A DNA stretch of 62,044 nucleotides, filler included, from Dugesia japonica (taxonomy: Eukaryota): assembly GCA_001938525.1 (NCBI GenBank). It is 5 parts of 5 records of this genome, joined end to end, with 100 filler letters (N's around TTAATTAATTAA, not from the genome) between each part and the next. Parts side by side here need not be neighbours in the genome. Positions count along the whole stretch, not along the records: positions 32,917 to 53,102 come from MQRL01604510.1; 4 more parts are not named here. One strand, written 5' to 3'. Each line of letters starts with the position of its first letter. The stretch's first letter is position 1. Positions 31,311 to 61,430 of this stretch are shown here, piece by piece. The position numbers and the translations under genes are program-made. The notes beneath the pieces are model-generated. The model was not told the DNA's origin, searched no databases, and saw nothing but the letters and a program-made list of their open reading frames with translations.

Positions 31311-31900
31311 CTTTTTGAGGATGAATGCTGGGCGTGTTCTATCCACTGAAACGCTGTTCAGTTTACCTTTTATAAGGTATTTCGTGTTCTTTGTCATCTT
31401 TGGAGTAGATAACGATGTCATCAATATAAGCAGAAGCAAAAGCTTGACAACTGTTTAGACACTTGTTCATNTGTCTTTGAAATATTTGTGATGCAAAAGG
31501 CCAAACGGTATGATTATTGCTGTTTTGTGCTTGTCTGAATCTTGGATTGCAATTTGGTAATAGGCTTTCCTTAGATCCAATGTGAAGAAAATATTTCATC
31601 ATTGATTCTGTCTAGTATGTCACTCATTCTGGGAAGTGGATATCTGCCTGGGTTTGATTTGCTTCATAATTAATGGTCCCAATCTTTGAGCACGTTGATG
31701 AACTTGTGGACCGTTGATGTATATTCGCAGCACCGTTAGGTATTCCGAGTTTAAAATTTCATTACTGTGCTGTCGTCTTTGAAAGATTCAATTGCTATGA
31801 CAATCTATTAAAAGGCGATGTTTTGACAAAAAAATCTGATCCCATTATTGGACGCTTGACATCTGCTACTGTAAACGTCCATTGAAATGTGGCTGTGGTA
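31311..31900 (-). mobile_element. Heavily deleted Ty3/gypsy pol remnant
   Basis: RT fragments LDLRKAYYQI and SQIFQR..SAYIDDIVIYS; integrase-tail motif VSVDRTRPAF. Confidence 0.75.
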
Positions 31901-32916: not shown

Positions 32917-33490
32917 GAAGATGGTAAGTTTTTCTTACTGATAAATCTTAATGACCCTTGCTGTTTTCTTCTTAAATTTTCTTAACCGGATTCTCTCCGA
33001 CTTTTCTGACCGGAATTATTCACATAAAACAGATTTTACCTCAATTTTAATTAATTTTTTTGTTTAAGTAATTATTATTTTCATGCATTTATTTCTTCAT
33101 TTGATTTTTATTTTCTTTAATAATTCTAATAAATTTGTGATTACTATAATTAATCACATTGAATTTGATCTTCTAGGTTTCTTATTTAATATTATTATCT
33201 GGATTTTCCATTCTGGCTTTCTTCTGGTTCTTTAATTTGGTAATGTTTATTCGTGACCTCTTTTAACCTTGATAATCGTTCCTTTGGGTGTTTTGCCCCA
33301 ACAAATCGCTCTCCGTCTTGTTTAAATTCCGTCCCGGAATTTGCCATAGCTCCTCCCCNTTGCAGAAAATTCCTTATTAATAAAACTGACAGAGCAAGGT
33401 GAAATTTAAGGTCATTACATGCTATCTCATACCACATACATAAAAATTTCTACGTTATACATTCAAATACAATATACATTAAAGTTTACA
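32917..33490 (-). repeat. 3' LTR (partial) of the giant element
   Basis: Starts TGTAAAC on the minus strand immediately after a purine-rich tract; runs into the contig end. Confidence 0.65.
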
Positions 33491-33505
33491 GTTCATCCCC
33501 TTCAT
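33491..33505 (-). promoter_or_regulatory. Polypurine tract (ATGAAGGGGATGAAC)
   Basis: Purine-rich 15-mer directly before TG, ~50 bp after the last ORF. Confidence 0.65.
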
Positions 33506-33555
33506 TGATTTCCGATGGATAAATTACAGTTTATTTACATCGCGCTCAACTTGTT

Positions 33556-34710
33556 CTAATCGACTTCCTCTAGTAGACCGTCCTGGTCGCTAGCTCGTGG
33601 TTTGGAACCATATTTTCGTAATATTTCCGTTACGATTGACTGGGACAGGTTTCTCTTAAATTGGTTATGATTCCACACTGAGGTTCTACTGTGTGTTCGG
33701 CTGGGTGTTGCAGAACCGAGTTGTTTACTTTGGGGTTCTTGTATCACTAAAGGAACTGGCTTTCTGGGTTGATTAGGTGCTGAGATTATGTGCGGGACTT
33801 GATCAATTATTTTGTTTATCCATTCTGGTATTTTGGATTTAACTGGAGCTGACNTGGGTTCCTGGATTATTAACGGTGTGTATTGTCTTGGTAGACTGGA
33901 GATTATTGGTTGCCATTCTGAAGAGTCAGGGTTTAGTGTTGATTTGGGTAGATTAAGACTGATTAGATTCCTTGGGTGTGGTAGGATCGGTAGTGCTAAT
34001 GGATGAAAAATTGGTTGCTGAGCTATGTGCGCTTGCTGTAGTTCCTTAATGGTGGCAAATTGCTCGACTAACTGTTGTTGTTTTTGTTTCATCTCATCTT
34101 CTTTTCCATGGTAGAGGTTTCGCAACTCAATGATTTCCTGCTCCAGGGCTTCGATGTATTGCTGTAAGAATTCGTTCTTTTGCTGGTAATCTTGCATTAT
34201 GCTCTCGAATTCCAAGGACAATTTATTGATACCAGCTTGTACCCCTTCTCGATTGGCTAGGCTGGTTAGGAGTTGATTTTCGGTAGCCAGATGATTTCTC
34301 TCAAACTGCGTGTTAAACAGTTCCTATCTAAAACTGTGGTTATTTTCTTGTTCGACTATTAGTTGATTCTCGAGTAACTTTATTTTAGGTTTGACTTTCT
34401 CATATTTACCCTTCCAGCTTTGGGCTTGTTTGATAGCATTTATTTTCGCTCTATTGGCGTCGATATTGCTTTTTATGTATTTTTGGTGGGTTTTGCACGA
34501 TCGCTTCTTTATTTCTAATTCGTGACGTGCTTTTTCTATTTAACTCTCCAACTCGCTAATATATTTTTGCAATTGTAAATTGGATAGTACATCGATTTTG
34601 GATTCCAATTTCCATTTAAGGACTTCAGGTACGGTGGTGAGGGTTTGAGTTTGTATTTGTAAGATTTGAATCTCATTGCTGAGATGGTTTATTAGGTTTT
34701 CCACGTTCAT
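33556..34710 (-). pseudogene. Accessory ORF3: ~385-codon long coiled-coil protein with a Pro-rich C-terminal half
   Basis: ATG at 34710 is in frame with ORF 33556..34221 across two point stops; heptad-rich E/Q/K/L N-half; repeated PL(I/V)IQEP motif in the C-half. Confidence 0.75.
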
Positions 34711-34825
34711 TTCTAAAATAGGAGAGAGTGATTATTTTTAGTATAATAACATTTTGACAAATATAAGTATATATAATCATACATTATTTACATATTTAAC
34801 TTTATTTATTAATGAAATTTTATTG

Positions 34826-36050
34826 CTAATGCCCTTCGTTCCGACACATAGGGCATTCATTTAAGTTTGTAGCACAATTATAGCATGTTTTAAAATGCCC
34901 ACATGGCAGAAATACGACCTTGATGGTTTCTACAAGTCAGATCACGCAATCGTGATCTAGTAATATCCATTCTTGTTCATATTTTGCCCATGGTTTTACC
35001 GATTTGACTGAGTTTTGATATAACTCATATGGAGTGACTTTTTCAGACCCTTTTTCTGTGAACGTTTGTTTTATTAACTGTTTGGTATTCGTCCTATTTA
35101 ACTTTAAGATATTAGACAACCGGTTAATCTGTAAGTCAATTGCCATTTCTATTTGACTAAGCGACATATTTCATTCGATTCTGTATGCTGTTGTTTGTAT
35201 TTCTTCCTCGTTGATTGGTGTTAGTCTTGAATAATTTGGTTGATGGAATACTTTCTTTGGTAATTTCTCTATTCCTTGTAGTAGTAGAGTTTCTCGTTTG
35301 CAAGTGGCGCATTTGATAACTTTATCTCTGGTTTGCTGGACGAGATATAATCCTTCCATTGCTTTTCCTTCGAGATTTGGTATTTTCTGGAAGGTTTTTT
35401 CTTTTTCTTCGATATCCCATTCCAGATCCTCTAACAAGGCTACTTCTGCTAGGTTCTTTATGATTTTACAATATAGCTTCTTTGGTTCTATTGCTGTTTT
35501 CTCGGTTTCGGGTTTTCTTCCTTTAGTTAGTTGGGATTTGTTGTTTACATTTACATTTAGCAGGAATGGAGAGGTAGGAAACCTTTCCCTATGTGCTTTA
35601 TTGGGTTGTTCATTCATGCCCCATTTGTGTAGGATGCCTTGACAATATATACATTTTACTCCATCTGGTCGTTCTTGGGTGCAGAAGTAATAAAATCCGG
35701 ATTTGGCCATAGCCTCAATAAGTCCAGATAGATAGTTGGGCAATTTGNNNNNNNNNNNNNNNNNNNNNNNNNNNNNNNNNNNNNNNNNNNNNNNNNNGTT
35801 GGGCAATTTGGCGAGAGATTGCTTTCTTGCGTGTTCGTCCCGGTACTTCTCATCAAACACTTTCATTGTGCGGTAACACACCCTTTTACTGATGAAATTT
35901 TCCGGTGCCACAAATACGTTACGGTATGTTTTGTGTTATTGCGGTTTGCTTGATTTCCTCTCGTCCTCTGCTCATGACAAATGATTCGATATCGGAATCT
36001 TCCATCAGTAATCTAGCTTCCTGTATTGATACTTCGAAATTGAATTCCAT
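34826..36050 (-). pseudogene. Accessory ORF2: inhibitor of apoptosis protein (BIR, degenerate BIR, C3HC4 RING)
   Basis: BIR AMAKSGFYY..DGVKCIYCQGILHKW..P.KAH...P.SPF (35564-35827); second BIR-like unit EKTFQKIP..EGLYL..DKVIKCATC..H; after two in-frame TGA stops, CVI*LVETIKVVFLPCGHFKTCYNCATNLNECPMCR (34841-34948), an IAP-type RING. Confidence 0.92.
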
Positions 36051-36279
36051 TTTCTACAAGAGGTATATTATATAGCATTGTTATAGTATTTCTTGATTTT
36101 ATCCTTATGAAACATACTATATTACATAGAATACATATTTATTTGTGGGCTTTCTTATTTTAGATAGCATATATATGTATATATAACCGTATTATTTATT
36201 TATTTTATTCATTTATTTAGTTTATATATATATATATTATGATTATTAGTTTTTTTTAACTTCCTCTATCTCTTAGATT

Positions 36280-36840
36280 TCAGACAAAACTGACTTGGTT
36301 GTGGACACTCCGGGTCTTGAGTGTCTCGATTTCCCTCCTTTGTGAATTTACTACTTTTTTAAGATATTTTAGTTCTCTTGATTGATCAGAGATCAGATCG
36401 TGTTGTTTGGCTACTAATTCCATAGTATAATTTTGTTTTTCTGTGGTGATTTCCAGCATTTGTCGATTTTCTATTATTTGTTGTCGACACATAAGGGTTT
36501 CTGCGTAGAGATTTTCATTCTGGATTTGTAAGATTTTATTTTTGAATTCCAATTCGCACCAATCTACGGGTTTCGTTGTTATTAGGGTTTGTATTAATTG
36601 ATTTTGGTTGAGCTCCAGTTCTTCCAATCGTTGTTGGGTCCATTAAGTTTGGGTTCTAGCACTATTCCATAGTTCTTTAAATTCCTCGTTATGATTTTGC
36701 CAGATTTCATTTAACGTTGCTTGTGGGGGTGTATTGCTTTTAAGATTATTTAATAGAGAGAAATTTCTAGTGCATGACGGACTTACATCAGTTTGAGAGT
36801 CCATAACTTCATTTCCGATTGTTGCTTCTTTTTGGTTCAT
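36280..36840 (-). pseudogene. Accessory ORF1: ~186-codon coiled-coil protein of unknown function
   Basis: ORFs 36643..36840 and 36280..36627 are in frame across a single TAA; heptad-like C-half. Confidence 0.7.
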
Positions 36841-36942
36841 TTCTGAATGTGAAACATTGATTAACTTCGCCGTTGTTTTTGTCTATATACATATTGATAA
36901 GTATTTTACAATTTACATTATTTACAGGTAATTTTTCCTTAT

Positions 36943-38985
36943 TTAACATACCAATATACCCGGTGCCTGGTAGTATCCGGGCCCGTACATTGGTAATTCG
37001 TGAGGTGCGTTTCCTAGTGAAATTCCATAATAACTTGGTGGGGCGAATGGTAATTGTCGCTCCCGTCTGCTGCGGTGATGTTTCTTTTTCTTTGGTTTCG
37101 AAACACATAGACAAATAATGCTTATTATTAACACCGTAATAATAACTCCTCCAATACCTATCACATATCCTAATTCCTGACCTCTTGTTGATTGTACTGT
37201 GATAGTAGTTCTCCTAGGTTCTGTAGTGATTCTTCCTATGCTTTCTAGGTGATTCTTTCTTGGCTCAAATTTGCGTATATTTGACATCCAATTTTTCAGA
37301 AACTCCGCCCTTCTTACTTCCTTCTCATGGTTTTTTGTGGTGGTGGTTATCTGAGTTCCAATGGTAGTTGATAATTTAGGCGTGTGTGTGGACATTTTGG
37401 TGGTCTCCTTTTGTTTTCCTTTTGTTTTTGTTTTGATTACTATATATTGATTGATCACTGTGATGAATTCAAATCCCCATAATTCTTTGTCGAATTCCCC
37501 AATGCCCATTTCTTGGTACCTTTCCCCTCTCCAATATTTTTTACTTCCGAACTTCCATCCCCACTCGTAGAGATCTTTGATCGTATGTATTACCATTTGT
37601 TCCACCTTCTCCACAACCCGTATATAATACCTACGCTTAACTTTTTTCACTTGTAGTGGATATGGCCCCGGTTGCCAATATGGTTTCCATCCCTCCATTT
37701 CCTGATTTGTTATGGAATGTACTTCTCGACCTTGAGTGACTGTTATGCTTTTTTGACCTATTTCTTTTCCTTTTTTATTCCACACATCCGATTTGTATCG
37801 CATGTGCTGCCATATCATAGTATGGTAAAGGTATTCGTTTTTTGAACATATTTTCGGAATCTCATCTCTTGTATTCCTGGTTATCCATTTTTTGTACTTG
37901 AGGTTATTTTCCGAATAATATAGTACGAAGTTCATTTCTTGCTGGGGTTCAGATTCGTTACTTGCTTCGTAGACTAATGGATTCTTTTCATTTTTTAACG
38001 TTACGTCCCAGGTTTTTTCTATCTGCCACTTATTGATATCAAATGTCAATAGTTTTCCTACTATTGGTTCTTGGCTTAGGAATTGTATAATAATCCTCCC
38101 TTTTACTTGATGCAGTTTAATCGTAGTGCTTTTTTGGCTTTTGATTACTGGTGTTAGAATTAATTTTCCGTAACTATACAGTGCCTGGGTTCTCTGTTCC
38201 CTTCGCAGCCTTATATGACTTATTTTTATGACGTGTATTTTCCTTTCCCTGAGGAATATTCTGTGTTCTGTTAGGACTGGTTCGTTTACCTGGCATTCTT
38301 GTCCTCTGATTCCCTTTAGGATCATTATTATAGTTGTTAGTACGATTTGCCCACTGGGAATCTCGTTCTGAGTGGTTACTTGTACTTGCCGTATTGCCAA
38401 TGCCAGTAACGCGAGCCCAACCAGAATTATTCCGGTTAACCCATACAACATTAGTGACATAGGAAGTCCTCTTCCCATGTTTCCGTTTATTCTCATTGTC
38501 AGCCACGTTAATATACCATAATCCCAATTTGTGTTGATTACTGCCCATAACAACAGAGATATTTTAACTATTAATTCCATTTTATTCCTCTTCTCGCTTC
38601 TTTGCAATAGTTCCTTTTTTGATTTACCTGGTTCTGTTTGTTCCCCCTCATCCTGTATCCATATCATTTTCCTTTTCTTCGCCCTTCTGTGCGTTGTTTG
38701 GACTAATTGTCTTTCTCTTTCTTCCATTCCATCCCCTTGGCCCTGTAATTTTTCTCTCGTTGGTTTCCCTTGTTTTTTACACTCTTCGAGGGGATTTGCG
38801 ATAATGCTTGGTTCCGATTTTTTCCAAGTTACATTGCTTTGGATAGTTGGCATGACCATGCTTCCTGGCAATCGGGCTTCTAACGGTTCATATACTCTAA
38901 TCCAGTTCCATCGTACTAGCGTATGGTGAAATAGATGAATGGATTTTAACAATTCTTTGCTGTATACTTCGCACAAGATAAACAC
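36943..38985 (-). CDS. 680-aa membrane protein: three N-proximal hydrophobic segments, ~380-aa ectodomain with Thr-rich stalk, C-terminal TM, basic tail with PPSY
   Basis: Intact ORF; hydrophobic runs LIVKISLLLWAVI, LMLYGLTGIILVGLALLALAI, IVLTTIIMILKGIRG|Q; TM LGYVIGIGGVIITVLIISIICLCV followed by SKPKKKK; no recognised homolog. Confidence 0.8.
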   Translation of the reverse strand: MFILCEVYSKELLKSIHLFHHTLVRWNWIRVYEPLEARLPGSMVMPTIQSNVTWKKSEPSIIANPLEECKKQGKPTREKLQGQGDGMEERERQLVQTTHRRAKKRKMIWIQDEGEQTEPGKSKKELLQRSEKRNKMELIVKISLLLWAVINTNWDYGILTWLTMRINGNMGRGLPMSLMLYGLTGIILVGLALLALAIRQVQVTTQNEIPSGQIVLTTIIMILKGIRGQECQVNEPVLTEHRIFLRERKIHVIKISHIRLRREQRTQALYSYGKLILTPVIKSQKSTTIKLHQVKGRIIIQFLSQEPIVGKLLTFDINKWQIEKTWDVTLKNEKNPLVYEASNESEPQQEMNFVLYYSENNLKYKKWITRNTRDEIPKICSKNEYLYHTMIWQHMRYKSDVWNKKGKEIGQKSITVTQGREVHSITNQEMEGWKPYWQPGPYPLQVKKVKRRYYIRVVEKVEQMVIHTIKDLYEWGWKFGSKKYWRGERYQEMGIGEFDKELWGFEFITVINQYIVIKTKTKGKQKETTKMSTHTPKLSTTIGTQITTTTKNHEKEVRRAEFLKNWMSNIRKFEPRKNHLESIGRITTEPRRTTITVQSTRGQELGYVIGIGGVIITVLIISIICLCVSKPKKKKHHRSRRERQLPFAPPSYYGISLGNAPHELPMYGPGYYQAPGILVC

Positions 38986-39431
38986 AACTTTTTTAGGGTG
39001 GATTGCCGGATAAGTGCTTCAATTGGTAGTTCGATCCGTGACCCTTCACAATCTTTTTTGAACCAATGTTTTCGTCTCGATAACCATGCTTTCTGATCGT
39101 AAATAGCCTTCCACGTAATTTTTAGTATAATTTGTGTTTTCTTCACACATTGTGAACAGTTTCTTTCTAATTGCATTACTGACAGTTGGCATGTTACTTT
39201 TCTGATATGGGCACCATTCTCCTCTGTTCTAGGTGTTTGCATTCCTTGATATGTAATTGGATAGATTGTAGTAGCGCTCATAGCTTCTATCATAAGTGGT
39301 CTACGCATTTGGTTACCTGAATTGAAAGACAATGTATTAGCCCTTTGATTCATAACAATTTCTTTATTATTAGTTAACGACGCACTTTGCCGTATCTGCT
39401 GGGATTGGATATTACTTGATGTATGTTTGAT
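38946..39431 (-). pseudogene. Post-integrase linker region with Cys pairs (CSQC, CLSC)
   Basis: In frame with the integrase tail across one TGA at 39432; overlaps the 680-aa ORF in another frame. Confidence 0.55.
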
Positions 39432-41324
39432 TCAACCTCTTTTACCAGTTTGTTTTATCCCAGAAATACTCGGTGAGGTATTTATGATTGTACTACCTTC
39501 CTTAGTTTTTCCTTGGTTGATGGTTTGTCTACAAACATTCATCTTTAATACCTTAGTTATCTTTTGTAATTCTGTTTCCGTTCTTACTGTATTTGTAGCA
39601 GGTAGACTCGTTTCTTGTTTTACTTTTTTCTCTTTTCCCGTTAATAATCCTTCCCCGTTTTCTTCAAACTCAGCGTCCTTGCTGAGACTGTTTTTCTTTA
39701 CCACTGTTTCCCTACTCCATGGTGAAGGATTTATTAGTAGTTTACTATTTACCGCCATGGCTTTTTGTGACCGTAATGGATAACTGTGTGATATATTTGC
39801 TTCCATTCCTTTCGACTTCCGTGGCCGCCCTGGCCTTCTACGGTCCGTCGTAGTGGGCTCGATGCTTGTGGTTGGTGCGGCTTCTTCTGTCATCGCCGCC
39901 TTTTTACACAAGTTGGCGTGGTATATCTTGGGCTTCTCTAGTAGGTTCCCTTTTTTCCGAACATTGAGGTTAGTTTCTGTTACTTCGATTACTTCATACG
40001 GTTCTTGCCATAGTCTTTTTAATTTTGATGTCGTACCGACAAAAATATCTGGTAAATTGATAATTACCATATAGCCTTTTTTTAAAGGAATGTTGCGCCG
40101 CTGATTTGTCATGTAGTTCCTTGTAGCTTTCCTGGTAGAAACCTACATTTTCTTTGGCTTGTTTCCATATTTTCTGCATGGTCTCATTTAAATTTGCAAC
40201 AAAACCCGTTTCATCTTGATATTGTGTTATCGTTGGTTGGAATTCCAAATCAATAGGCATGTTGCGTTCCCTGCCATACATAAGACCGAATGGAGTGTAT
40301 TTAGTTGCTGGGTGCACACTCATCCGATATGCAAATAGGCATAATTGAATATGCTTATCCAAGTTGTTTTGTTCCTTCTGCGCGTAACTATACAACGTAT
40401 TGATCAGGGTTTTGTTAAACCTCTCCGTTAATCCATCCGTTTGCGGATGATATGGTGATGTCCGTAGTTGGTGTATTTTGAGAAAGTTCGATATTTCTGC
40501 TAATATATTGCTCATGAAATTTTTTCCTTGGTCGGTCAATATTTTCTTCGGAGTGCCGTATCTGCTGAAGAATTTTCGTACCAAAATGTCTGCTTTTGTG
40601 GTCGCTTTCTGATTCTTCATCGGAAGTGCCTCTGGGAATTTGGACAGATAATCCATTATGGTGAGTATGTAGATATTTCCGCTTAGGGTTGGTGGTAATG
40701 GTCCAACTACATCCATAGCGATGATTTCCATTGGCGCCGCTGGTACCGCAATGGGTTTTAATAACGCTTTTACTTTTTTCCTGTTCCTCGTCTGGCAGCA
40801 CATATCTGACATTTAGCAATCCATTCCTTCACTGATTCTGTCATGTGAGGCCAGTAATATTTCTGTCTTAATTTGGATTCAGTTTTNNNNNNNNNNNNNN
40901 NNNNNNNNNNNNNNNNNNNNNNNNNNNNNNNNNNNNNNNNNNNNNNNNNNNNNNNNNNNNNNNNNNNNNNNNNNNNNAACCATCCTTTGGTAAGTGCATA
41001 ACGACCGCCATTCTTCTTTAGGTGTTCCTTCATCTTGGGTTCACATTCTAACTTTTCCAAATTATAACTTTCCATATATTTTATAATGATCTGGATCTCC
41101 TCGTCGTCAGCCTGCGCTTGTTTTAACCCATCGAAATTTCTATCTTCGGCCAATATAAAATATACCATACCAACTATTTTCTCCAATAACTCCCTGAATG
41201 TAAATGTTTCTGTAACCTCGGGTGCGTTCTCCGTGGCTTCTGGTCCACCGATCCTTGATAGAGAATCCGCATTTGAGTTGGCTTTGCCTGTTTTAAATTT
41301 TAATAGCGGACAATAATCTTGCAT
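39432..41324 (-). pseudogene. Integrase (zinc-binding, DDE core, SH3-like GPY/F region, AT-hook tail)
   Basis: KYYWPHM..CQIC; IAMDVVGP, LTDQGKNF, YHPQTDGLTERFN; LWQEPYEVIEV..HANLCKK; RRRPGRPRK; frameshifts near 40790 and 40080. Confidence 0.95.
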
Positions 41325-41333
41325 TGCTAGTTG

Positions 41334-41819
41334 CTATTTTGCCATTCTGTTCCAACGTAACGGTTTCTGAGCCATAAAAGTGATTGGTAAGTGATCCGTA
41401 TAGATAAGTACTTCGTGCCCATGTATAAGTGATCGAAAATGTTTAGTGGCTTTTACAATAGCCATTATCTCTCGTTCTGTGGTGCTATAATTTAGTTCTG
41501 CTCCTTGGAATTTCTTGCTAAAATATGCGATTACTCTTTCTCTTCCTTGTTCATCTAATTGACTCAACACTGCACCCATCGCGTATCCACTAGCGTCGGT
41601 GGCCAATATAAATGGCTTCTTGAAATCTGGGTGTACCAAAATGGGTGCCGTTAATAATTTATCTCGTAATGTCTTGAATGATTGCTGTTGCTCTGGACCC
41701 TATATGAATGCAGTATCTTGTTTGACCAGTTCTTGCATCGGCTTCGCAATTTTTGCGAAATCCTTGATAAATTTACGATAATAATTTGCGAGTCCTAGAA
41801 ACTCCTGTATTTTGAGTAC
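41334..41819 (-). pseudogene. RT connection and RNase H
   Basis: QEFLGLANYYRKFI; FILATDASGYAMGAVL; NYSTTERE; IYTDHLP. Confidence 0.95.
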
Positions 41820-42700
41820 TTAATTTGGTGGTGCTAGATTTCGTATCTTCTCTGTATTTCGCGGATTCGGTTCTTTGCCTTTATCCGATATTAAATGGCC
41901 TAAATATGTTACTTTATTCTTGGCCCATTCGCATTTGGTGGGTTTCACTTTTAGATTCCATTTACGTAACCGTACAAACACACTACGCAAGTCATTAAGG
42001 TGCCCATCAAAGGTTGGCAAATAGATAAATAGATCATCAATATAGGCAATACATTGAGATATGCCATGGGTTACATAATTCATCATCCGTTGGAAAGAGG
42101 CTGGTGCATTAGTAAGCCCGAATGGCATACGGATAAATTGGTATAAGTCCTTGCCTGTGGAAAAGGCCGTTTTCTGTCTATCTTCTGGTTTGATCTTTAT
42201 TTGCCAATAACCGCTTCGCAAATCTAACGTAGTGAATATTTTAGCATTACACAATAATTGCAATAATTCGTTGATATCTGGCAACGGATAAGTATCCTTT
42301 TTCATTTGAGCATTTAATCTTCGGTAATCAATACAGAATCGTTGTGTCCCATCTTTTTTATCTACTAATATCACTGGTGACTGCCATGGNGAGCAGCTAG
42401 GTTCTATCACACCGATTTTCACTAATTTAGCTGTTTCCTTATTTGCGAATTCCTTTTTCTCCACAGTCATGGCGTATGGTTTCTGTTTACATGGCGTTTC
42501 ATCCGTTAATGGAATTGTGTGCATTTTTGCGAGGCACATACCCAACTCTTCATCCGCCCATGCAAAAATATCTCGGAATTCTTCCAGCAGTTGCAGTATT
42601 GCTTGTTTTTGTTCTTCTGACAAAGTTTCCGTTTCTACTTTGAACGTTCTCTCGATTTCCGGTTCAGCGGCTACTTCTTCCATCACTTCGGGCTCTGATT
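41820..42700 (-). pseudogene. Ty3/gypsy reverse transcriptase
   Basis: RFCIDYRRLN, LDLRSGYWQI, MPFGLTNAPASFQ, YIDD, YLGH. Confidence 0.97.
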
Positions 42701-43384
42701 CGATGAGTTTAGCGTGCCCATTCTGGAGTTTGGTCTAATTGTGATATCTTTTTCTGTAAAATTAACTAAGCTAACTGGTACTTCCCCACTTTTGTTGACC
42801 GTGGTTATTCCTCCTGCCGTTTGTAGCTCGTACTGGTGTGCAAATCCGTCATATGGTTCGAAATAACAATCTCCTTCATAGGCACTTTTTGTACTGACTA
42901 CACAATATACTTGGCATCTACTAGGTACCACAATTTCTTCTTTAGTAAATACCTCGTGATCCTTTACATGGGTATAACCTTCCAATGATTGTAACCGTAA
43001 TGTTGAGAAGTTTAATATGCCATTTTTCATCAGGACGGGAAGAATATCCGTTCCCAATATACACTGTCCCATCATTTCCACTATGATCATATTGTGTTTA
43101 ATTCTGTTATCTTGATATTCGACTTCACAGGCTAATTCTCCAAAAATTTTGAGACTACTACCATTTGATACATCTGCTGTAGTGTTAGTGAGTAAGATAA
43201 TTTTATATTCGGTTATCGCGATTTCATCTATCGACAGCATTGATATGGTTGCTCCGGTGTCCACTAGGGCTGTTATGGGTCGGCCGTTGATTTTATCTAT
43301 AATGGTTAATACTGGTCCGCCATTGAGACTTGTGCATACTACATCTGAAGGGTTATGACTGGAGTTTGTTGGTATTTTGTTTTT
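42683..43384 (-). pseudogene. Aspartic protease 2 followed by a beta-rich spacer
   Basis: KINGRPITALVDTGATISML..CILGTDIL; in frame with the upstream ORF across one TGA at 43385. Confidence 0.9.
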
Positions 43385-44680
43385 TCATCTTGGTTCTCGT
43401 TCTTGAAACCTTATCCAATCGTCCCTTATTAAGGTATTGATATTAGTGATTTTCTGAAGGTCTTGGTTCGAATTGTTTTGTTCATTTCGGGCAGTTGGCT
43501 GCTGTCTCAGCCGGTTGGGCGTTGGCTGATTCCATTGTTGTGGTCGTTTCTGTTGGGTTATCATACGAGTTTTCTGATATCCTACCGGTGCATACTCTTG
43601 ATCATAGTTTTCTCGTATCGTTAGTTTTCTCAAGTCCAATATTCCCTTTGGACAGAGGCGTGGTAAGAGGTCCAATCCAAAGAGACAGTCGAATGTTAAT
43701 TCGTTCATTATTTGAGGTTTATGCCAGAAACGGATTCCATCGCTTTCTATCGCACATATTGCTTCTGCCGCGGGTGAGATTTTTTCTCCAGAGGCCGTGA
43801 TGATAACTCCTTTGATTATTGTTATTCTGAGTAGTCGATAATCTTCTAGTATTCTTTTATGGACTAACGTCGTACTTGCTCCTGTATCAATAATNNNTAT
43901 TACCCATCTTCCGTCGATTTTTATTCTTTTTTGTAGTAATTTTGCTTTCTGGGAAATCATCATACATACGGTCTGGTTTTCTAATTTGTCATCCTCCGTT
44001 ATTTGATTATTCGGGGAGCGCAGATTTTGCTCGGTCACTCTTCTGTCCATGGTTGATACATTGTTCTCTGTTAGTAGCGCCATATTAGGGGCTTGTGGTG
44101 GGCTTATATATGGATTGCTGTACATGGGACATGGTGCCCATACTTGTTGGGGTGGTTGGTTCATGGGATGCCAACCATGTTGCGGATAAGCGTTATAATA
44201 CATTTGTGCTGGTGCTGGCGTGCTTTCTCCTCCTCCGAATTTTAACGCATTTTTCAGTCGTTGCATTTTGCTGATCTTTTCGTATTGCTGCCTTTTGAAT
44301 TCTGCATCGTATTCCATGGCAGTTTTATAACTAGGTACATGAGGCGTTCCACTGCTTTCTCCTCTATCATCGTCGCTGCTACTACTACTTTCATCTTTGT
44401 TTTTAAACCTTTCTTTGAATTGGTTAAAATATGATATTTTCTTTATGCCCATTTCTTCGCATAACAATTGGAGTTGCATTATGACTTCCTTGTCTGATCC
44501 TCTTATTTGTCCGAGCTTCCGAATGAATCTCTTTACCCTGTCAATATCCTTGGAGTGACTATTAAGCACCACAGGCTTGGCTAAAAATGGAAATATTCCC
44601 GTTACCATTTTCCAATTCACCTTCTTCTCTCTTTTGTATATATCAAAACATGCGAACAATTGATTAATTACTACTCGTGT
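43385..44680 (-). CDS. Glycoprotein cytoplasmic region, Pro/Gln-rich linker and aspartic protease 1
   Basis: Same uninterrupted ORF (43385..44761) as the glycoprotein TM; IKIDGRWVIxIIDTGASTTLV..DCLFGLDLL. Confidence 0.88.
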   Translation of the reverse strand, partial: TRVVINQLFACFDIYKREKKVNWKMVTGIFPFLAKPVVLNSHSKDIDRVKRFIRKLGQIRGSDKEVIMQLQLLCEEMGIKKISYFNQFKERFKNKDESSSSSDDDRGESSGTPHVPSYKTAMEYDAEFKRQQYEKISKMQRLKNALKFGGGESTPAPAQMYYNAYPQHGWHPMNQPPQQVWAPCPMYSNPYISPPQAPNMALLTENNVSTMDRRVTEQNLRSPNNQITEDDKLENQTVCMMISQKAKLLQKRIKIDGRWVIXIIDTGASTTLVHKRILEDYRLLRITIIKGVIITASGEKISPAAEAICAIESDGIRFWHKPQIMNELTFDCLFGLDLLPRLCPKGILDLRKLTIRENYDQEYAPVGYQKTRMITQQKRPQQWNQPTPNRLRQQPTARNEQNNSNQDLQKITNINTLIRDDWIRFQEREPR

Positions 44681-46404
44681 TACTGAAATTATCAGCATAA
44701 CTCCCAACAATCCTGCTATTGCTTGTCCAAATATGATGAATCGTCCCCACATTTTCCGCATTACGTTTTCTGTGGCCTTTTGTAAGTGATCTGCTGAAAA
44801 TAACGCATCTTAATTCACTCGTCCATCTATGTTAGTTCCACTGGTTAATTGCACTATGTTGGATAAGATTTGCATCCTTCGGACTGGAAACAGCATGTAT
44901 TCCCTGGCTTTCTCCAGATCTTCCCTGCTGTAAATTCCTCCTTTATTTACGTCAATTGGAGTGAATTGCATACCCCCATTCAATCGTAACATGGAGAATT
45001 TCCGTGGTTCGACTCCCACTGCCATTCGTTGCGGAAATCGTATCCATGGACCATCTATCATTATGTATTGTGGTCCAAATACATTAGAGCAATTTATGAT
45101 ATTTGGCCTATAACCCAGTGGTGATATGATTCGAGTAATTGGTTGCACGTATCGTTTCTCGTTATTATGGATAATTTCTATTTCATTGTAGCAGTTTTTG
45201 GGATACAACTAGAACTCGGCATCTAGGGCCTTGCATTTGTATAGGTACATTACTTCTCCTACTACTCGACCGAATTGTCCTTTTTCCAGAGGAAGTAGTG
45301 GAGTGACCCTATCTGGGTTTGTAACTGCCATTGCTAATTTGGTCTTTAATATTTCTTTATTTAATGTGCAGTCATTTTGAATAAGATCGTGGTACATTCG
45401 TCCGATGGTATCTTGCATTCGGTGAAATATATTGTCCAGTTTATTATTGGTATAAAGATGCAATTTGATATCTTGTGACATTTCTGCTGCCTGTGCCGTC
45501 TTTATCCGATGTTCTGACACGAATATTCCTTTGTAATTTGTTTTATACACTATTTGCCCACACTTGGACATCGAATTTCCCTTAATTAACCGGATGGTCT
45601 CATCCTGCTCTGAGGAATTAACACTGTAGGAGTTGTGTGCCATTGCTGGTCGTATATTCTCGGGCCGGACCGTGTTGTTTCTTTGAGATTATCTATCCTA
45701 TCTTTTAGATTACCCTCCTTTGGGGTTTGATCGATCGGTGTTAAAGCTCGTTGTCCTTGATATTCATTGAACATTGCCTCTTTTAGGTGGGCTAGCTTAC
45801 AGTCCTGGTGATCTACTTTGTATGTCAATGTTGATGTACCTGCATTACAGGATCCATCGGCCGCCTTGCAGTATGACCTCCCTTTCATAGTCAGATCTTG
45901 AGCGTCAAAAAATGCTTCGTATTCCTTAAGCTCCACTGTATACGTTTCAATTGCTACCAAGTATGACCATACCTCTCCCCAGATGGTGTATGTACCATAT
46001 TCGCAGTGGCCTTTATGTGAAGATATGCTTCCTGCTGCTTCTATTGGTTGATCAATCACATGTCCTTTCTTGGCGATGACTTGAGTTCTATGTTTGATGG
46101 TGATCTTTCCTGTAGTAAATCCTTCATCGCATTGTTGTCCGGTTAAATGTACGGGGTGTCTCACTGTTCCTGGATCAATTATTGAAGTGTAGCTGTGGTA
46201 CCCACAATGAAATATAAACGTTTTTACCGCTACCGTACACTCACATACTTGGGCCTTATAATAATCTGACTCCTGATATCAGTGGTACACTGAATTATTA
46301 CGGAGTGAAATTTTCTCCGGATTTGCGTCTGGACATTCCTCGGTATCCACTAATGAGAATACCTCTTTCCTAACTTGCATCCCATCGCAATCATATGCTA
46401 CGAT
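44681..46404 (-). pseudogene. Env: chuvirus/Monjiviricetes-like class III fusion glycoprotein (ectodomain and TM)
   Basis: After a signal-like helix: IVAYDC..FSLVDTEEC..YQ..VCECTV..FHCGYHSYTS..C..G..C; later KCGQIVYKTNY, NKLD, C.LNKEILKTKLA, GEVMYLYKC, CYNEI..YVQP.TRII, C...FGPQY, GGIYSREDLE, then TM FIIFGQAIAGLLGVMLIISV. Three point stops and one frameshift (~45615). Confidence 0.85.
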
Positions 46405-46650
46405 GGCTTCATTTCTGCACATCATTAAGAATAACACGAGTATTGCGGTGATTAATGCTTGCCAAGAATTTCCTCGAGGCCCACGTGTCCAACCATTCTC
46501 GATCTCATTTAATTGTTCTCGAACAATCCTTATTACTCTGGTTGCATTTTCATGTGATGGCTGTGTCTTAGGGCATATGGCCTCAACAAATTTTTTCCAT
46601 CCTCCTTGTTGTTTTATCAACGGTGCGATTTTATTTTGCATTAGATCCAC
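46405..46650 (-). pseudogene. C-terminal fragment of a Bcl-2-like domain (BH2) and hydrophobic anchor/signal peptide
   Basis: IAPLIKQQGGWKKFVE matches the BH2 pattern WIxxxGGWxxFV (L codon TTG is one change from TGG); hydrophobic WQALITAILVLFLMM ~40 aa later. The rest is lost at the 46650 junction. Confidence 0.62.
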
Positions 46651-47883
46651 TATCGGTAATTTACTAAGAATGAAGTTTTTTGACCATAGTGAACTAATAA
46701 TTGGAGAAAGAGAAAATAAATTAAAAGAATTAATTAAATTAATTGATGAAAGAAAAAACGACGAACTTAAATTAATTTCAGATCAGAAAAACAAAGAAAT
46801 GAACATAATTAATATTTAAGAAGAAAATAAAATAAATAATTCATTTAATTAAATAAAATAAATCGTACTAATTAAAATGATTTATTTTTAAAAGAAAACT
46901 AAACATTTTGTGAAATATGGCAAAAACGACGGCTTCCCAAGATGGAAAAATGAGCAATTAAGAAGATTATGGTCAAGAAAAAATCGGAGAGTTTNAAAAT
47001 TTAAGTTAAAAAATCATAACAAGACTCAGAAAGAAGATACAAGGGTTTGAAGATGGACCAATAATTTTGGAATCCTAAAATATCCACCAATAAAATGAAC
47101 TCACGTTCAAGCCAATGGAAACGTCAGAAAGATCGTACAATTCCAAATAACCAATGAAAGAAATGGGGGTGTAAAGAAAAACAGTATAAATACCGTTTCA
47201 ATTTCAGACGAAACGGATTTAAAAAAAATTAATCCTTAAGTGACAATCAATACTCAAACCGAACCTCGACAAAACAAAAAGCAATATTAATCAATCTTAG
47301 TTATTGGAAAATTCACTGAAATCAAGAATCTCAACGGTAATTATTTATCCATATGAAATTTGGGTGCAACAATTTCCGACTGGAAGATGAAAAATTATGG
47401 AGGACCATTAGAATCGTTACTGGCTACCAATATGTTGTCAATTCACGTGCTGTGCTTGCTCCGGATCGGAATTCAGTCTATGTTAGTTATATTGATTGTT
47501 GTAATTATATGCTTAATTATTAATAACTGAAGTTTGTTAATCTCAATATATTTTTCACTTACAAACTCTTTTGTTTTTATGATAATTAATCTCCTAACTA
47601 ATGAAATTAAAAATAACTAAGATTAATCAGATTAATAAACACTCCATAAACTGGAAATTTTATAAGAAAACGATAAATATGGGTCTTAAGTTAAGCCAGT
47701 ATCATGAAGTACGAACTTAAACTACAGGAATGCGAGTCTGTACTCGAACTACGAGTCAACGGCTCCATTCCGAAGATCTGGATTTTTGGGGACTCCAAAT
47801 TAAATTCTTCGCGGGGTTTTATTAGGCTGACCATCCTGGACTTAATTATTAAAACCTCAACCCACCTAGACAAAACCCCAACA
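46651..47883 (+). repeat. Solo-LTR-like element (~1.23 kb) that truncates the giant element
   Basis: Abrupt shift to A-rich non-coding sequence; termini TATCGG..CCCCAACA; CCAAT boxes (~47112, ~47151) and TATAAATA (~47185); 3' 180 bp similar to 50670-50848; no matching TSD. Confidence 0.55.
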
Positions 47884-48395
47884 CCTGTATTGGGGTCTTT
47901 ATTTTCATAATAATATTTTTTATCCGTACATTGTATCCATGATTATCCTCCCTGCCATCGTCATTGCTCTTATTGGCAACAAAATTTATATCAGTCCTAT
48001 CAGCTTCATCATTCTTGTGGTCGTACAAGCTACAAGTTACCGATCCTGTCCTGAATATCTAGCATAGAAATTCTAGATTAAATTTTTAGTGGGGTTTTAC
48101 TAGGCGGCTATACACCTGGTCATAAATTACAACTTTCCAATCTAGCTAGAACCTAAACATATAGATCAAATGAGAAAATATTATGTGATGTCAAGGAGAT
48201 CAGGGAAATTGTTAACAGAGTTTTGCTTTCATTTACTTAATAACGCATTTTATAATTGTGAGTATCGATTTATGGATTTCAAATATCTGAGATTTTTTAA
48301 TTTTTAATTAAAATGATAAAATTGGTTTTTTGAAACTTTTAAAATATAAAAAAGGTTTTTTAAAACACAAATTAATTGAATAAATCCTGTATATT

Positions 48396-48720
48396 ATATT
48401 ATGTTGAATTATAAAACTATAAAAATTATTTTGTAAAATTAGGTTTAAAAATAATTAAATATATATAATAAAGGTATTTTAAAATTAAAGTCAATATTTT
48501 ATATTATGTTAAATTATAAAATTATAAAAATAATTTTATAGAATTAGGTTTCAAAATAATTAAAAATATATGTAAAATAAAGGTATTTTTAAAATTAAAA
48601 TTGATATTTTATATTATGTTAGATTATAAAATTTTAAAAATTATTTTGTAAAATTAGGTTTAAAAATTATTAAACATATAAATAAAATAAAAGTATTTTG
48701 AAATTTAAAAAATCAATATT
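48396..48720. repeat. ~108-bp AT-rich tandem repeat, 3 copies
   Basis: Unit ATATTATGTTRRATTATAAAA..AATTAGGTTT..AAAGGTATTTT starts near 48396, 48501 and 48611. Confidence 0.85.
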
Positions 48721-53202: not shown

Positions 53203-53817
53203 GATTCAACTTTTGCAAATTTACAATAATTTCCAGTGCTGCAAATATTAATTATTAGCAAATAAAGTTAGTCAATCAAACTTTAGAAATAATACATTAA
53301 TAACGTTTGAAAATCAATCAACTAATTCTAACCTTTTTACTTATAAATCCAGTTATTTTCTAATAAAGATTTACTCGTATTTTATATAATTATATCATCA
53401 ATTTTATACATGCATTATTGACTAGAACAAGTAATATTATCCATAAATTATCCAAAATATCAAATCTATAAAATAATATAAAACATGAAATCTATACATG
53501 TTATTTTAACAACTAAATTTATAAGCATTCTTTGAAATCATTTTACCATTAAAAATTCACTTACTGTTTGCAGGTATTATTTTAGATTTTCGAAACTTTT
53601 ATAAAACACGATCATACTTTAATAGTTTTAAAAAATATCAATTTAATGCTTTGTAATAATTAAATTTATTATAAAGAGCACTATTAAAACAAATTATAGA
53701 GAATTAATTTATTATTTACTAGTTCCAGCTTAACTATTTCTGATGTTTTCATTAATTAATTACATTTTTGGTACAAATTGATTTTATTACAATATATTAA
53801 TTGATTAATTTTTAATA
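53203..53817 (+). repeat. Left arm of a ~615-bp near-perfect inverted repeat (partner 61431-62044)
   Basis: GATTCAACTTTTGCAAATTTAC.. at the contig start is the reverse complement of the last bases of the window; identity continues for ~615 bp. Confidence 0.95.
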
Positions 53818-53896: not shown

Positions 53897-56800
53897 TGTC
53901 GCAGTTTCAAAAGTTCCGTGAAAATATTTAGAAAATTTTTAGAAAAAGCTACAAGTTTTTACAATTTTCATGTGAATTTTTATATTAATGATTCGAGGAG
54001 TTTTCCAAACTCTCCTAACATTGGTGGCAGCAGTAAACACTGATGCAATCTCAGAAAAGTTGTTGCCAAAAATATTTTGCAGAGGCGATGATCTAGAAAA
54101 GTTTATTAAACGGTGTGAAATATACTTTGAGTCAAAGAACATCGCTGTTACGATAATCACGAACGTTGGGTGATATTTATGCTTCATGAAAATTTAATGG
54201 AAGCATACGTGAAGACATTGAAGAAAGCTGATTGATATTGAGAGAGATTGCGATTAGCTTTTAAAAGCAAGAGATGCATAATAAAGGATTTATAGAATCT
54301 TGTAAGCTATCAACATGGTGATGAAGAAATTGAGGTGTATTTTACAAAGTGGAAGATTAAGTCGATGAATTTTTAGCAAATGGAGAGTTGACGAAAAACT
54401 CTTATCAAAAATGCTAATTATTTGTGCAAATAGTAAAAAAGCAAAAGCGCTTATCATGCGAAAATTGGAGAAATTAGAAGATATAAAAGAAACTTTATCA
54501 TTAGATGAAAAAATAGAAAAAAGAGAACCTATTTATGTAGTAAAGAGTTACGCTGGTATAACACGTTGAAAACGTTTCAGAGAAAGGAGGCAAAATACTG
54601 AAAATGTTACAAAATAAAGAGACCTAAATTATTGGACATGCCAGAGTTATGAGCATACAAAAAGAGAGTGTCCAAAAATTTCTCATGTGGAATGTTGTAC
54701 TTTTCACAAGAAAGGGGCATTTAAGTAAAAATTGCATAGACAAGAAACCAACAAGATGTTATGGGTGTGATTAGATTGGTCATATCACAATAATGTGGAC
54801 AGAAATTGTGTGTGGTAGATGTAAAAGACCGGGTCACAGAGCAGAAAAATAATATTCGAACAATAATAAACCTAGACTAGAAGATAGAAGATACAATTTT
54901 AAAAGCGGACAAGAAACAAAAGATTGGAGTCGGACAAAACCAATTCATGCTATTTGAGAAGAATTTGATGATGAGAATGAAGAGAGATTTTCTGAGAGTA
55001 TAATAGAAAATGACAATCCAAGAAGAGAATAACCAAAAAGTAGGGCTACATTAGTAGAGGAGTTGTTCGGAGCTATTCATTAAAACGAGTTACCGTTTGA
55101 ATATCCTCAAGAGACCGAGAAATGGAATGAGACGAGTAAAATTGGAGAAAAAGTTTACAGATTCTTAAAAAGAGAAAGTTTTAATAATGTGGAAATTAAC
55201 AAAGCAGAAGTGATAGGAATAATTGAAGAGAAACAGAAGGTAGAAATTTCGTGTGGAAAAATGCAAAGGAGACCTAGCATTTCAGTGATGATCAAGGGTG
55301 AATAGTTTGATTGTTTGTTGGATACAGGAGCAAGAATAATTGTGATGAGCATGAAAGGATTTAATAGACTCGGAGAAACAATGTTAGAGAAAAGCGATGA
55401 ACGATTGCATTTCTTGAATAACAGCTCTTTGGAGATAATTGGGAAGATGCGTGTCGAAGTTATAGTTTCAAAGGTGTGCAAGGAAGTAACATTTATAATA
55501 GTAGAGAAATTAATACCAAATTTAATTGGTTGAGTAAAATTTCAGAATACTTTTAGATATCATCTTCAAAAAACGTGCAGAGTAGACATCAATAATCATC
55601 GAGAAATATTTNTTTGCAATATTGAGGCAAAATTTGGAAGGCAGATACATACGGTTGAACGATTGAGACATCCATTGAAGATTCTAGAAATTAACAAAGA
55701 TCATATATTGACTGCAATTTTTAAGAATAATGAGAATGTATTTTTGTCGGATAAATGGGAAATTGGATCCACACACTTAACGAAGCATCGAATAATCACT
55801 AAAGAAGGTCCAATCAACATAAAAACGTATTGCCAACCAATGAATCTAGATGAGAAGATTAAAGAGGCCATTAATAATTTATATGATAATGGTATCATTC
55901 GGGAGTGTAATTCTCAATGGAATACGCCATTAATCTGTGTTTGGAAAAAGGAAAAAGAAAAATATAGGATTATGCTTAGACTTTAGACAGCTCAATGCAA
56001 TAACAGAAAGACAAGCTTTTCCTTTATTGAATGTGGACGAAATGCTAGATGCTTTGGAAGGTACGCGGTATTTTAGCTCAACAAACTTGGGAAATGCATA
56101 TTTTTCAGTGGACCTCAGTGAAAATTCTCAGGAAAAGATGGCTTTTACGACTAAAAAAGACAATTTTGTTTCAATAGAATGCCTTTCAGAATTGCAGCAG
56201 CACCAGGTAAGTTCCAGGAAATGATGATTAAAGTAATCGGAAAAATAAAAGGAGCGATAGTTTATCTAGATGATATTCTCGTATTTGCCGAAACAAAAGA
56301 GCAACACTATGAAATAATCAATAAAATATTAATAGAAATTAAGAAGGGTGATCTAAGAGTTAATCCTGAGAAATGTCAATTCATGCAAAAGGAGATCAAC
56401 ATTTTANNNNNNNNNNNNNNNNNNNNNNNNNNNNNNNNNNNNNNNNNNNNNNNNNNNNNNNNNNNNNNNNNNNNNNNNNNNNNNNNNNNNNNNNNNNNNN
56501 NNNNNNNNNNNNNNNNNNNNNNNNNNNNNNNNNNNNNNNNNNNNNNNNNNNNNNNNNNNNNNNNNNNNNNNNNNNNNNNGGCCAAGTAACAAGAAAAATG
56601 AATGGTCAAATGAATTAGAAGAAGTTTTTAATGAAATGAAAGAAGCAATAATGATGTCTTCAATATTATGTTTTCCAGATATAAATATAGGATTTATTTT
56701 TGACACGTATGCGAGTTTCGATACGATGGGGGCAGCATTATCTCAAAAAAACAACAAGGGGCAAGAAAAAGTAATTTCATATGGGTCACACGCAATGGGG

Positions 56801-57442
56801 AGTCATGAGAGAAGTTATTGTAATACACGAAAAAAATTGCTCCCAATTTACTACTTTTGTATTCATTTCAAGCACTACTTATTTGGGAAGAGATTTATCA
56901 TCAGAACAGACCATAAAGCCATCACTTTTATGCTAAATACCAAGAAGCTGATAACATCACAGTTTCAAACTTGTATTAATTATATGAGCAATTTAGATAT
57001 AAAATTGAAATATAGAAAAGGATCGCTTCATAAAAATTCGGATATGTTGTCAAGGAAGGAATGCGGTACATGTGCACAATGTCCAATGTTACATGAAGAA
57101 TCCAAAAGTGGAAAATTAAAAACAAGGATGTTAATTACAGTAGATATTCAAGAGAAACAAGGCAATTTTGGTGAGAATGATGAAGGGACATGGATACATG
57201 ATAATAAAGTAGAAGACGTTATAATGAGGATACACCATCTTTTGTGTCATGCTGGAGCATAAAAAGTTGCAGCGTATTTGAAGCATAAGTATAACGCGAA
57301 TCATTTGTGCAGCAAAGTACAAGAGGTTGTTCGAAGCTCTATAAAAGGCAAGAAAGCTAAAGTGTTTTAAACAAAAACGAAGGAAGAAACAAAAAAGACT
57401 CAGTCATCTGAAATGTTTGAACTGTTATTTATAGATGTGTGT
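53897..57442 (+). mobile_element. Compact Ty3/gypsy element, decayed, truncated in the integrase
   Basis: ..AACA then PBS-like TGGTGGCAGCAG (~54022); gag with about four CCHC-like knuckles (54630-54850); CLLDTGA; LDFRQLN, YLDD; RNase H (RTDHKA); integrase H..L.H and FIDVC, where it stops. Confidence 0.9.
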
Positions 57443-57576: not shown

Positions 57577-57635
57577 TGGGTTAATGGTTTGATTTTTTGA
57601 ATTTTAAAAATATAATAAAATTTAAAAACAATAAA

Positions 57636-59080
57636 ATGAAAGAATATACTTGTAATGATTGTAAAGAAAAATTTGATGGTAAAATTAATTTATATAAACA
57701 TTTAGATTCAAGTGAATGTAGATTTAAAATTGATTTTGAATGGTTATGTGGTTATTGCAATAAAAAATTTAAGACCAGTCAAAATAAATTTAAAGAACAT
57801 AAAAAATTATTTCTTGCTAACAAATTTAAACTTCCTGGTGTAGTTTATACAAAAAAGGAAATTATTTTATCAAAAATATAAAAAATAACTTTTTATTTCC
57901 TTCTCAAATAAATATATGTTGGGATAAAATAGTGTATAGAGAATATACATATATCAGAATAAAACAGTAGTTTATTATTAATATTACAGTATGGTATTAT
58001 AGTATGGATGTATAGTATATAATTACAAATATGAAATTACAAATATAGAATTACAAATCCTCAAATATGAATTTTCAAAAANNNNNNNNNNNNNNNNNNN
58101 NNNNNNNNNNNNNNNNNNNNNNNNNNNNNNNTTTTGCCAAATGTGAAATTACAAATAAAACGGCAAAAAAATATTTAGCTCTTTTAAGGGAAATGTATTT
58201 ACAAGTAGAAAATTATAATGATAGTGATAAGTTTAAAACATTATTAAGTCTTATGGTTTCTAAATTTTGTGAATCGGAATGTAAGAGTAAATTAATAAAT
58301 CAATTTTCTAAACAAGATGCAAGAAATATTGATATTATAAAACAATTAGAAATTGATTACCAAAAAGAAAGGGATGAAAATAATAAATTAAGGGAACAAT
58401 TAAATTTAGCTCTAAAACCAAATATTATTGAACATCCAGGTTTACAACTTACATTGATAAAATACAAATAAGTTGATGATCTAATTATTACAAATGAAGA
58501 TTGTATTAATATTGCTAAAAAAATAAAAGAAAATAGTGATGATTTATGCGAAAGATTAACAAGATTAAAAGTTCCGGAAGAATATGAAGGAGAGATAAAA
58601 ATAGTTTATCCAGCTAAAATCGATTTGGCAAATTATGTAGTAAAAACTTCAAACACAAAATAAGAACCTTTAAGGTAGTTATTTTTTTATACAACCAAAT
58701 TATTTATTTATAAAATAAGAAGCTTTGCAAGTGAAATAAGTTCCTCAAATATGAATTTTCAAAAATCTATGAGGGTTTCAGCGTTAATTTTTAAATGTTC
58801 TGTTTGTAACAAGCCTTTTAAAAATAAAGCGGTGTTGTCATCACATATTCAATCACAAACATGTACAAGAGCGAGAAACATGTTTTATGAATGTAATTTA
58901 TGTTTCAAAAAATTAGCAAGTGAAAAAGGCTTGAGATTACATAAAAACTCCACGAATTATTCTGCAGAGACATGGGTCCTTCGGATTTAGTGTATTTCCA
59001 TTATTTTGTGATATTTGTAACTAGACAAAATCATGCAAAATCACATTTTAATTGTGGAATACACAAAGAGCGTGTTTTAA
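57636..59080 (+). pseudogene. C2H2-like zinc-finger and coiled-coil ORF fragments of a Maverick/adintovirus-like element
   Basis: CNDC..LYKH, CGYC..KEH, CSVC..LSSH, CNLC..LRLH motifs directly upstream of the pPolB remnant. Confidence 0.6.
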
Positions 59081-59299
59081 ATCGAGAGAAGAAGAAAATA
59101 AAAAATTATTTTATGAATTACCTGGAGATGAAGCAATTGATTTTGAAAAGAATGAAACAAGAAAATTATTTAAACATTTAAAAAATATAAAGTATTATAA
59201 ACTTGAATATTTTAAAGAAAGTAAAATTGAATTAACTAGAAATGTAAAAATTAAATTTTAAATTAATAACTTGGTTTAAATAAGAAATTACTAAAATTG

Positions 59300-60771: not shown

Positions 60772-61017
60772 AACTCTTTCTAAATCTAAATTGTAATTTA
60801 ATATAAAATTNNNNNNNNNNNNNNNNNNNNNNNNNNNNNNNNNNNNNNNNNNNNNNNNNNNNNNNNNNNNNNNNNNNNNNNNNNNNNNNNNNNNNNNNNN
60901 NNNNNNNNNNNNNNNNNNNNNNNNNNNNNNNNNNNNNNNNNNNNNNNNNNNNNNNNNNNNNNNNNNNNNNNNNNNNNNNNNNNNNNNNNNNNNNNNNNNN
61001 NNNNNNNNNNNNNNNNN

Positions 61018-61430
61018 TCAGTTAAAGCTTTTTGCTGAAATAAAAAAAACTTATTTTTAATAGTTTCTAATTCATGAATTAAATTTTCTACTTCTTCCTT
61101 TTTGTTTTTATTAAAGATGAATTTAAAGTACCAATTACTGGAATACAAGAAACTACATTAGTTAAAATAATTGGAATTAATCTTACAACACCAAAAGTTC
61201 CTAAAGAAATTAATAAAGTTCCAGTTATTCCAACAATTATTCCAATAAATATTTCTGTTAATCTAATCGAAGTATTTAATCTCCTCCTTCTTTTATAAAT
61301 CTTTTTATAATGATTAATTTTATCATCAATGAAATAAAGATCAGATTCAAATTCTTCAATTCTTCAATTTAATAATTAAGTTTTGAGATATTAAATTTTA
61401 TATTTTTTATCTTTGTAACTATATTTATTA
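61018..61430 (-). pseudogene. Maverick/adintovirus-type small membrane protein remnant
   Basis: Hydrophobic EIFIGIIVGITGTLLISLGTFGVV.. followed, after a frameshift, by ..LETIKNKF....KALT, resembling the TM + KAL.D ORF found in Mavericks/adintoviruses. Confidence 0.45.

Follow-up and report, generated by a model that had tools for sequence, protein, structure and literature searches.

Among described retroelements, the Burro/GYPSM1 elements of planarians stand close to the locus reported here. Their single ORF of about 4,900-5,100 residues encodes Gag, cargo domains, BCL2, env, a protease (PR), a dUTPase-like domain, reverse transcriptase (RT), RNase H (RH), and integrase (IN), and a BIR domain is present in addition (PMC6431247). 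The Burro env matches mononegavirus fusion proteins and lies in frame between the BCL2-like domain and PR; the accessible text of the description presents this as the first case of an env that has gag before it and pol after it in one frame (PMC6431247). Burro elements occur in many copies, with decaying ones in a third planarian species (PMC6431247, citing Jurka 2007 and Grohme 2018), and their transcripts increase upon smedwi-2 knockdown in planarians (PMC8532177). GAG-ENV-POL elements with a gB-type env have been reported from Nematoda, Bryozoa, and Platyhelminthes, for which an ancient acquisition was argued, and the same source reports 114 gypsy elements of arthropods that carry chuvirus-like glycoproteins (PMC13524379).

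Here, we analyzed a stretch of 62,044 nucleotides from Dugesia japonica (GCA_001938525.1), in which five parts of the assembly are joined end to end (the window, to which all coordinates refer). A first-pass annotation had placed a chuvirus-like class III fusogen in this stretch, upstream of a gypsy pol and fused in frame to its protease. The region from approximately 46,700 to 33,000 on the minus strand forms a GC-richer, strand-skewed block inside the AT-rich window. We identify this block with good confidence as a copy, decayed and truncated at its 5' end, of a giant Ty3/gypsy element of the Burro-like kind. In natural relatives, a single ORF holds Gag, cargo, a class III Env, at least one protease, RT, RNase H, and integrase, and its product likely crosses the ER membrane twice. 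About 13.8 kb of the element is left, cut at the 5' side and meeting an assembly gap at the other end, and a search within the window turned up neither paired LTRs nor a primer site or gag. With its stops, its frameshifts, and its missing gag, the copy is dead and codes for no working Gag-Env-Pol product.

In the Env part of the copy (all parts of the element lie on the minus strand), five ORF pieces that follow one another between 46782 and 44630 match the Pfam family PF24664 (Monjiviricetes_fusion) in the order of its profile, covering positions 4-50, 63-210, 247-386, 394-514, and 522-579 of 653 with E-values from 6e-5 to 1e-21. The cysteine motifs reported earlier (AYDC and those following it) were found at their given place. 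Stops at 46281, 45211, and 44812 and a frame change near 45600 interrupt the ectodomain (44738..46404), of whose 15 cysteines 14 are conserved in all 11 natural relatives. To examine the fold, we used the env of one relative, P0023, which is 33-39% identical to the env pieces of the window and was modeled by AF2 together with 10 relatives (mean pLDDT 63, pTM 0.43). Among solved structures, Foldseek placed herpesvirus gB first (E 5e-12), with TM-scores of only about 0.3; among viral models, the best matches were chu-like, qin-like, and xinmo-like glycoproteins at 16-21% identity, with an E-value of 6e-37 for a chu-like G. A comparison of this kind had been proposed as a check by the first-pass annotation, for the repaired translation of the window env, and the annotation's assignment to a chuvirus/Monjiviricetes-type class III fusogen is upheld by PF24664, by the P0023 fold match, and by language-model features, which agree with the chu-like/gB class III match. 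A gB/G-type class III fold is thus predicted for P0023 from its model and for the window env from profile and cysteine conservation.

The same annotation had inferred an independent capture of the glycoprotein. The best viral structural matches, being chu-like and other Monjiviricetes G proteins, would suit a recent event in which a gypsy lineage with no relation to Burro acquired its glycoprotein from a chuvirus, but these viral proteins are more distant from the relative's env than the window env is from those of env-pol relatives (26-40% identity) or from Smed_errantivirus_5, a flatworm element (PMC13524379). In the part of the Smed_errantivirus_5 env available for alignment, 77 of 175 ungapped positions are identical by hand count (approximately 44%), including a run of 13 identical residues; over the same half of env, the database relatives reach 26-37%. 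The cargo set of a probable Bcl-2 remnant, a dUTPase-like domain, and a BIR domain is also that of Burro, as far as its published description extends, and the authors of the available errantivirus text read the flatworm, nematode, and bryozoan GAG-ENV-POL elements as products of an ancient acquisition (PMC13524379). We therefore regard a recent, independent capture as very improbable, and the earlier claim of one as unsupported; a copy of a Burro-like element remains our reading.

Ahead of the AYDC start of env lies a hydrophobic segment (46399..46461), predicted to be an internal signal peptide and first membrane crossing, and a similar segment precedes the (A/G)(Y/F)DC motif in each of the 11 relatives printed. 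At the other end of the ectodomain, the predicted transmembrane (TM) anchor (about 44681..44737; hydropathy and PF24664 positions 522-579) continues into a stop-free cytoplasmic tail and low-complexity linker (43940..44680) and then into a first retropepsin domain with a DTG motif (about 43655..43939; PF13975, E 5.5e-5). That the TM and this protease lie in one uninterrupted ORF, as first noted, is correct: the frame is open for 474 codons from stop to stop (43385-44809), with an ATG at 44761, the two other frames of this interval contain 43 and 25 stops, and none of 20,000 shuffles of the 230-codon TM-protease linker was free of stops. Three N (43895-43897) fall inside the frame just ahead of the protease motif. 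A second DTG retropepsin domain (43031..43312; PF13975, E 1.2e-7; PF00077, E 1.9e-7) continues this frame beyond the stop at 43387, by which the two proteases are separated. We also considered the linker as a short Gag, giving an ENV-GAG-POL order, and rejected this reading because the linker has neither a gag nor a knuckle match and the relatives carry gag upstream.

Between protease and RT, the copy contains a dUTPase-like domain (42719..42910), which matches PF00692 at E 4.6e-4 without reaching the curated cut-off, and this segment matches six collected related proteins, in five of which it directly precedes RT. The RT with a YIDD motif (41823..42650; PF00078, E 6e-35) is of the Ty3/gypsy type and 46-49% identical to those of relatives over 267-290 residues; it is followed by RNase H (41337..41699; PF17919, E 3e-38) and a broken integrase with H2C2, core, and C-terminal parts (39885..41333; PF17921 and PF00665), and breaks are found in all three enzymes. 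The order PR-RT-RH-IN, with a gypsy-type RNase H and an H2C2 integrase, is that of Ty3/gypsy (Metaviridae-type) elements. The Pfam families thus agree with the original call of a Ty3/gypsy pol, as does a profile of the relatives, for which Ty3 Gag-Pol is the best PDB match (E 1e-38). No BEL-type protease or Pao domain appeared among the Pfam matches of the window.

The flanks of the env-pol part hold further pieces of the element. At its upstream edge, 46579..46644 aligns to residues 55-76 of P0023 and probably represents the last helix (BH2 motif) of a Bcl-2-like domain; the copy is cut just upstream, and no homology to the gag parts of the relatives was found in the window. Residues 9-80 of P0023 match Bcl-2/Bcl-xL weakly (Pfam E 1e-3; PDB E 0.01), and a three-sequence profile matches 46579..46644 alone within the window (E 0.003), which is weak but position-specific; the BH2-like piece on its own gave no PDB match. 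Downstream of integrase, an accessory ORF of 691 residues (36943..39018) with no family match contains several predicted hydrophobic segments and a C-terminal TM segment followed by a basic tail. Two TM segments also lie behind the integrase in P0010, P0032, L001, and L002, but there in the polyprotein frame. A second accessory ORF (35171..35935) carries a BIR domain at about 35716-35561 (PF00653, E 1.1e-12), and this domain and the probable Bcl-2 remnant would make two apoptosis-related cargo domains in one element. Broken, coiled-coil-like accessory ORFs with weak matches only (33556..34539) precede a stretch (32917..33361) with a candidate polypurine tract (33361-33350) and the putative start of a 3' LTR, which runs into the assembly gap and is repeated in contigs of public runs; a second copy of this LTR was not found in the window.

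The fusion could be followed in natural relatives. A HMMER search of 1.84 billion representative proteins with the TM-protease ORF gave 28 matches, among which fused relatives are favored because the query held the protease: four align to the protease alone and the other 24 to the env TM. Thirteen of the latter extend more than 110 residues beyond the TM, and every one has an in-frame protease 83-343 residues later; the other 11 end within 105 residues past the TM and are mostly short fragments. Env, PR, and RT form a single ORF in P0007, P0010, P0012, P0032, and P0034, and three of five metagenome loci (L001, L002, and L004) encode env through integrase as one ORF of 3426, 3703, and 2693 residues, respectively. 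At least eight sequences thus read from env into RT or beyond, and the in-frame fusion that the first-pass annotation had wished to see in intact copies is present in these relatives. Two proteins (P0021, of 1963 residues, and P0023) end 30-37 residues after the TM, L003 shows a stop immediately ahead of env and runs out at the end of its contig, and L005 has env with no protease seen; in some relatives, then, the element is broken or env is kept separate.

CCHC knuckles lie upstream of env in L002 and L004, Gag signatures are likewise found upstream in P0006, P0010, P0019, and P0024, and several relatives are single Gag-Env-PR-RT-RH-IN ORFs. The product is thus Gag-(cargo)-Env-Pol: the env-pol polyprotein proposed at first holds for the env-protease fusion but was incomplete, having missed the Gag upstream in the same ORF. 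Single relatives match the window collinearly from env to integrase (tblastn). Word-indexed homolog searches with the window sequence gave no match, and none of 114 pattern matches in IMG/VR was a relative. We also noted that two loci carry, 3' of the polyprotein, a separate ORF that matches RNase_T (DEDD exonuclease) (L001:10617-12104 and L002:12085-13470), and the filing of the P0010 env-pol polyprotein in NCBI under a Flavobacteriaceae MAG, probably as animal contamination.

These relatives also bear on whether the window juxtaposes, by nested insertion, an endogenous RNA-virus glycoprotein and an unrelated gypsy pol. Fossils of Jingchuvirales glycoproteins do often lie beside gypsy fragments in arthropods, according to the accessible part of one survey (PMC10084718). 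Chance juxtaposition is nevertheless refuted by the stop-free junction, the same fusion in 13 database matches, the collinear env-to-integrase matches, and the env-through-integrase ORFs of L001, L002, and L004; we consider it exceedingly unlikely and retain the single fused element.

The relatives differ in the number of their proteases. A single protease is the norm for retroelements. Counted with a profile seeded on the same domains, one to seven intact DTG retropepsin domains are present per polyprotein in the relatives, and two domains in the window copy. Three to seven intact domains each are found in P0034, P0006, P0007, P0011, and L001:2-10279, and Pfam independently finds six protease stretches in P0034 and three in P0006. 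In P0034 (up to seven) and P0007, retropepsin domains also lie behind the integrase. At least two domains are present in six of the nine sequences that reach RT (P0007, P0010, P0012, P0024, P0032, P0034, L001, L002, and L004), which are not all independent of one another. The catalytic motif is kept in 25 of 25 near-complete domains. The protease tree is mostly unresolved, with three of 22 inner branches starred; it supports within-element pairs in P0006 and P0024 and a pre-RT pair of P0034 and P0007, while its resolution is too low to decide whether 'post-env' and 'pre-RT' domains form two old classes. Our literature search found no description of multiple proteases per polyprotein within its reach, outside of which Grohme 2018, Sacco 2022, Repbase, figures, and supplements may note several. 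We suggest, tentatively, that intact arrays might serve specifically to process a Gag-Env-Pol chain anchored in the membrane, for instance through neighbors pairing in cis and activation without assembly of a Gag lattice, or through domains specialized for different junctions or host targets.

Standard polyprotein topology suggests how such a chain might be laid out. Gag and the Bcl-2-like domain would be synthesized on the cytosolic side, the internal signal peptide would direct the Env ectodomain to the lumen, with signal peptidase likely cutting before AYDC, and the Env TM would bring the chain back to the cytosol, so that the proteases and Pol would start as the tail of Env. Once Env trimers cluster, the protease domains would be gathered and could dimerize and free Pol at the assembly membrane, and Gag, Env, and Pol would be made at 1:1:1. 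The two crossings inferred in this way agree with the tethering of Pol to the Env tail envisaged by the first-pass annotation, a tethering that follows from the predicted topology, and they add Gag to the chain. Alternatively, the polyprotein may be only a precursor or minor product. Most Env would then arise free of Pol, by recoding, splicing, or immediate cleavage, and Gag instead of the Env tail would package Pol. Recoding normally limits Pol in gypsy and retroviral elements, and both the early ends of P0021 and P0023 after the TM and the same-frame stop between the two proteases of the window would fit such a scheme. The env-to-RT frames of the natural sequences argue against it, as does the variable length of the TM-protease linker, and the many other stops of the window look like decay. 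We judge this alternative less probable than the tethered chain, though it carries appreciable weight.

Contigs of four public runs cover 30 of 30 bins of 32917-48500, and run X1 alone yields 44,608 contigs on this interval, 34,041 of them less than 95% alike, a figure that gives no copy number; cover and divergence fit an old family with many copies. Elsewhere in the window, a second, unrelated decayed gypsy element with protease, RT, and RNase H (53976-57262, plus strand) is about 25-30% identical to relatives of the first element, and a small RT fragment of another gypsy copy lies at 31366-31642 (minus strand). C2H2 zinc-finger ORFs and a weak match to protein-primed DNA polymerase B (E 0.04) at 57585-61363 suggest a Polinton-like fragment. 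A perfect inverted repeat of 610 nt (53203-53812 and 61435-62044) adjoins assembly gaps and is either a terminal repeat or an assembly artefact. An ORF at 7417-7800 (plus strand) resembles, by eye, the zinc-knuckle/restriction-like endonuclease end of a non-LTR element, and 25535-25880 is a tandem array of a 22-nt repeat.

With this copy, the known but little-studied elements that have Env inside a Gag-Pol polyprotein gain a further, dead member, and their Env is tied to the class III fold. The locus itself offers little; how Pol might be tethered and what the protease arrays do can be tested in the Burro-like family, for which planarians are the best setting.

Chuvirus/Monjiviricetes G and herpesvirus gB have the class III fold and cysteine frame in common with the element's env but, at 16-21% and 9-12% identity to the relative's env, respectively, both are stand-alone viral genes, unlike the env of the element. 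The nematode ERVs of Sacco and co-workers reportedly carry a continuous gag-env-pro-pol ORF. These non-canonical ERVs have env before pol and an RNA-virus-like glycoprotein, as here, in another host phylum (Sacco et al., 2022, via the accessible part of PMC13524379). Anakin elements (PMC7642597) share the glycoprotein family, according to the available text of PMC13524379, but have a BEL/Pao pol instead of a Ty3/gypsy one, and Troyka elements, none of which encodes env as far as their accessible description goes (PMC12440569), differ from the copy in this respect. Closer to it are Smed_errantivirus_1-6, flatworm HSV/gB-type errantiviruses of configuration C1a, which combine a Ty3/gypsy pol with a gB-type env upstream of pol; they are intact whereas the window copy is broken, and the accessible part of their description does not discuss an in-frame fusion or several proteases (PMC13524379).

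Burro1-4/GYPSM1 resemble the copy, by their published domain description, in the mononegavirus-like env in frame upstream of PR, the dUTPase-like domain between PR and RT, and the BIR cargo, which in the window copy lies in a 3' ORF. A Burro-like element would be expected to span about 30 kb with long LTRs, whereas about 13.8 kb and no LTR pair are present in the window. Also missing from the copy are gag and the MATH, SUMO-like, and ankyrin parts of Burro (PMC6431247). The accessible Burro text names one PR, whereas the window copy has two proteases (PMC6431247). The arrangement, taken at first as novel, is therefore not new: the Env-protease layout is already in print for planarian Burro elements (PMC6431247), and an env between gag and pol for GAG-ENV-POL errantiviruses (PMC13524379). 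Since Burro elements already show a fusion gene running in frame into the protease, the window copy is a further member of this known group.
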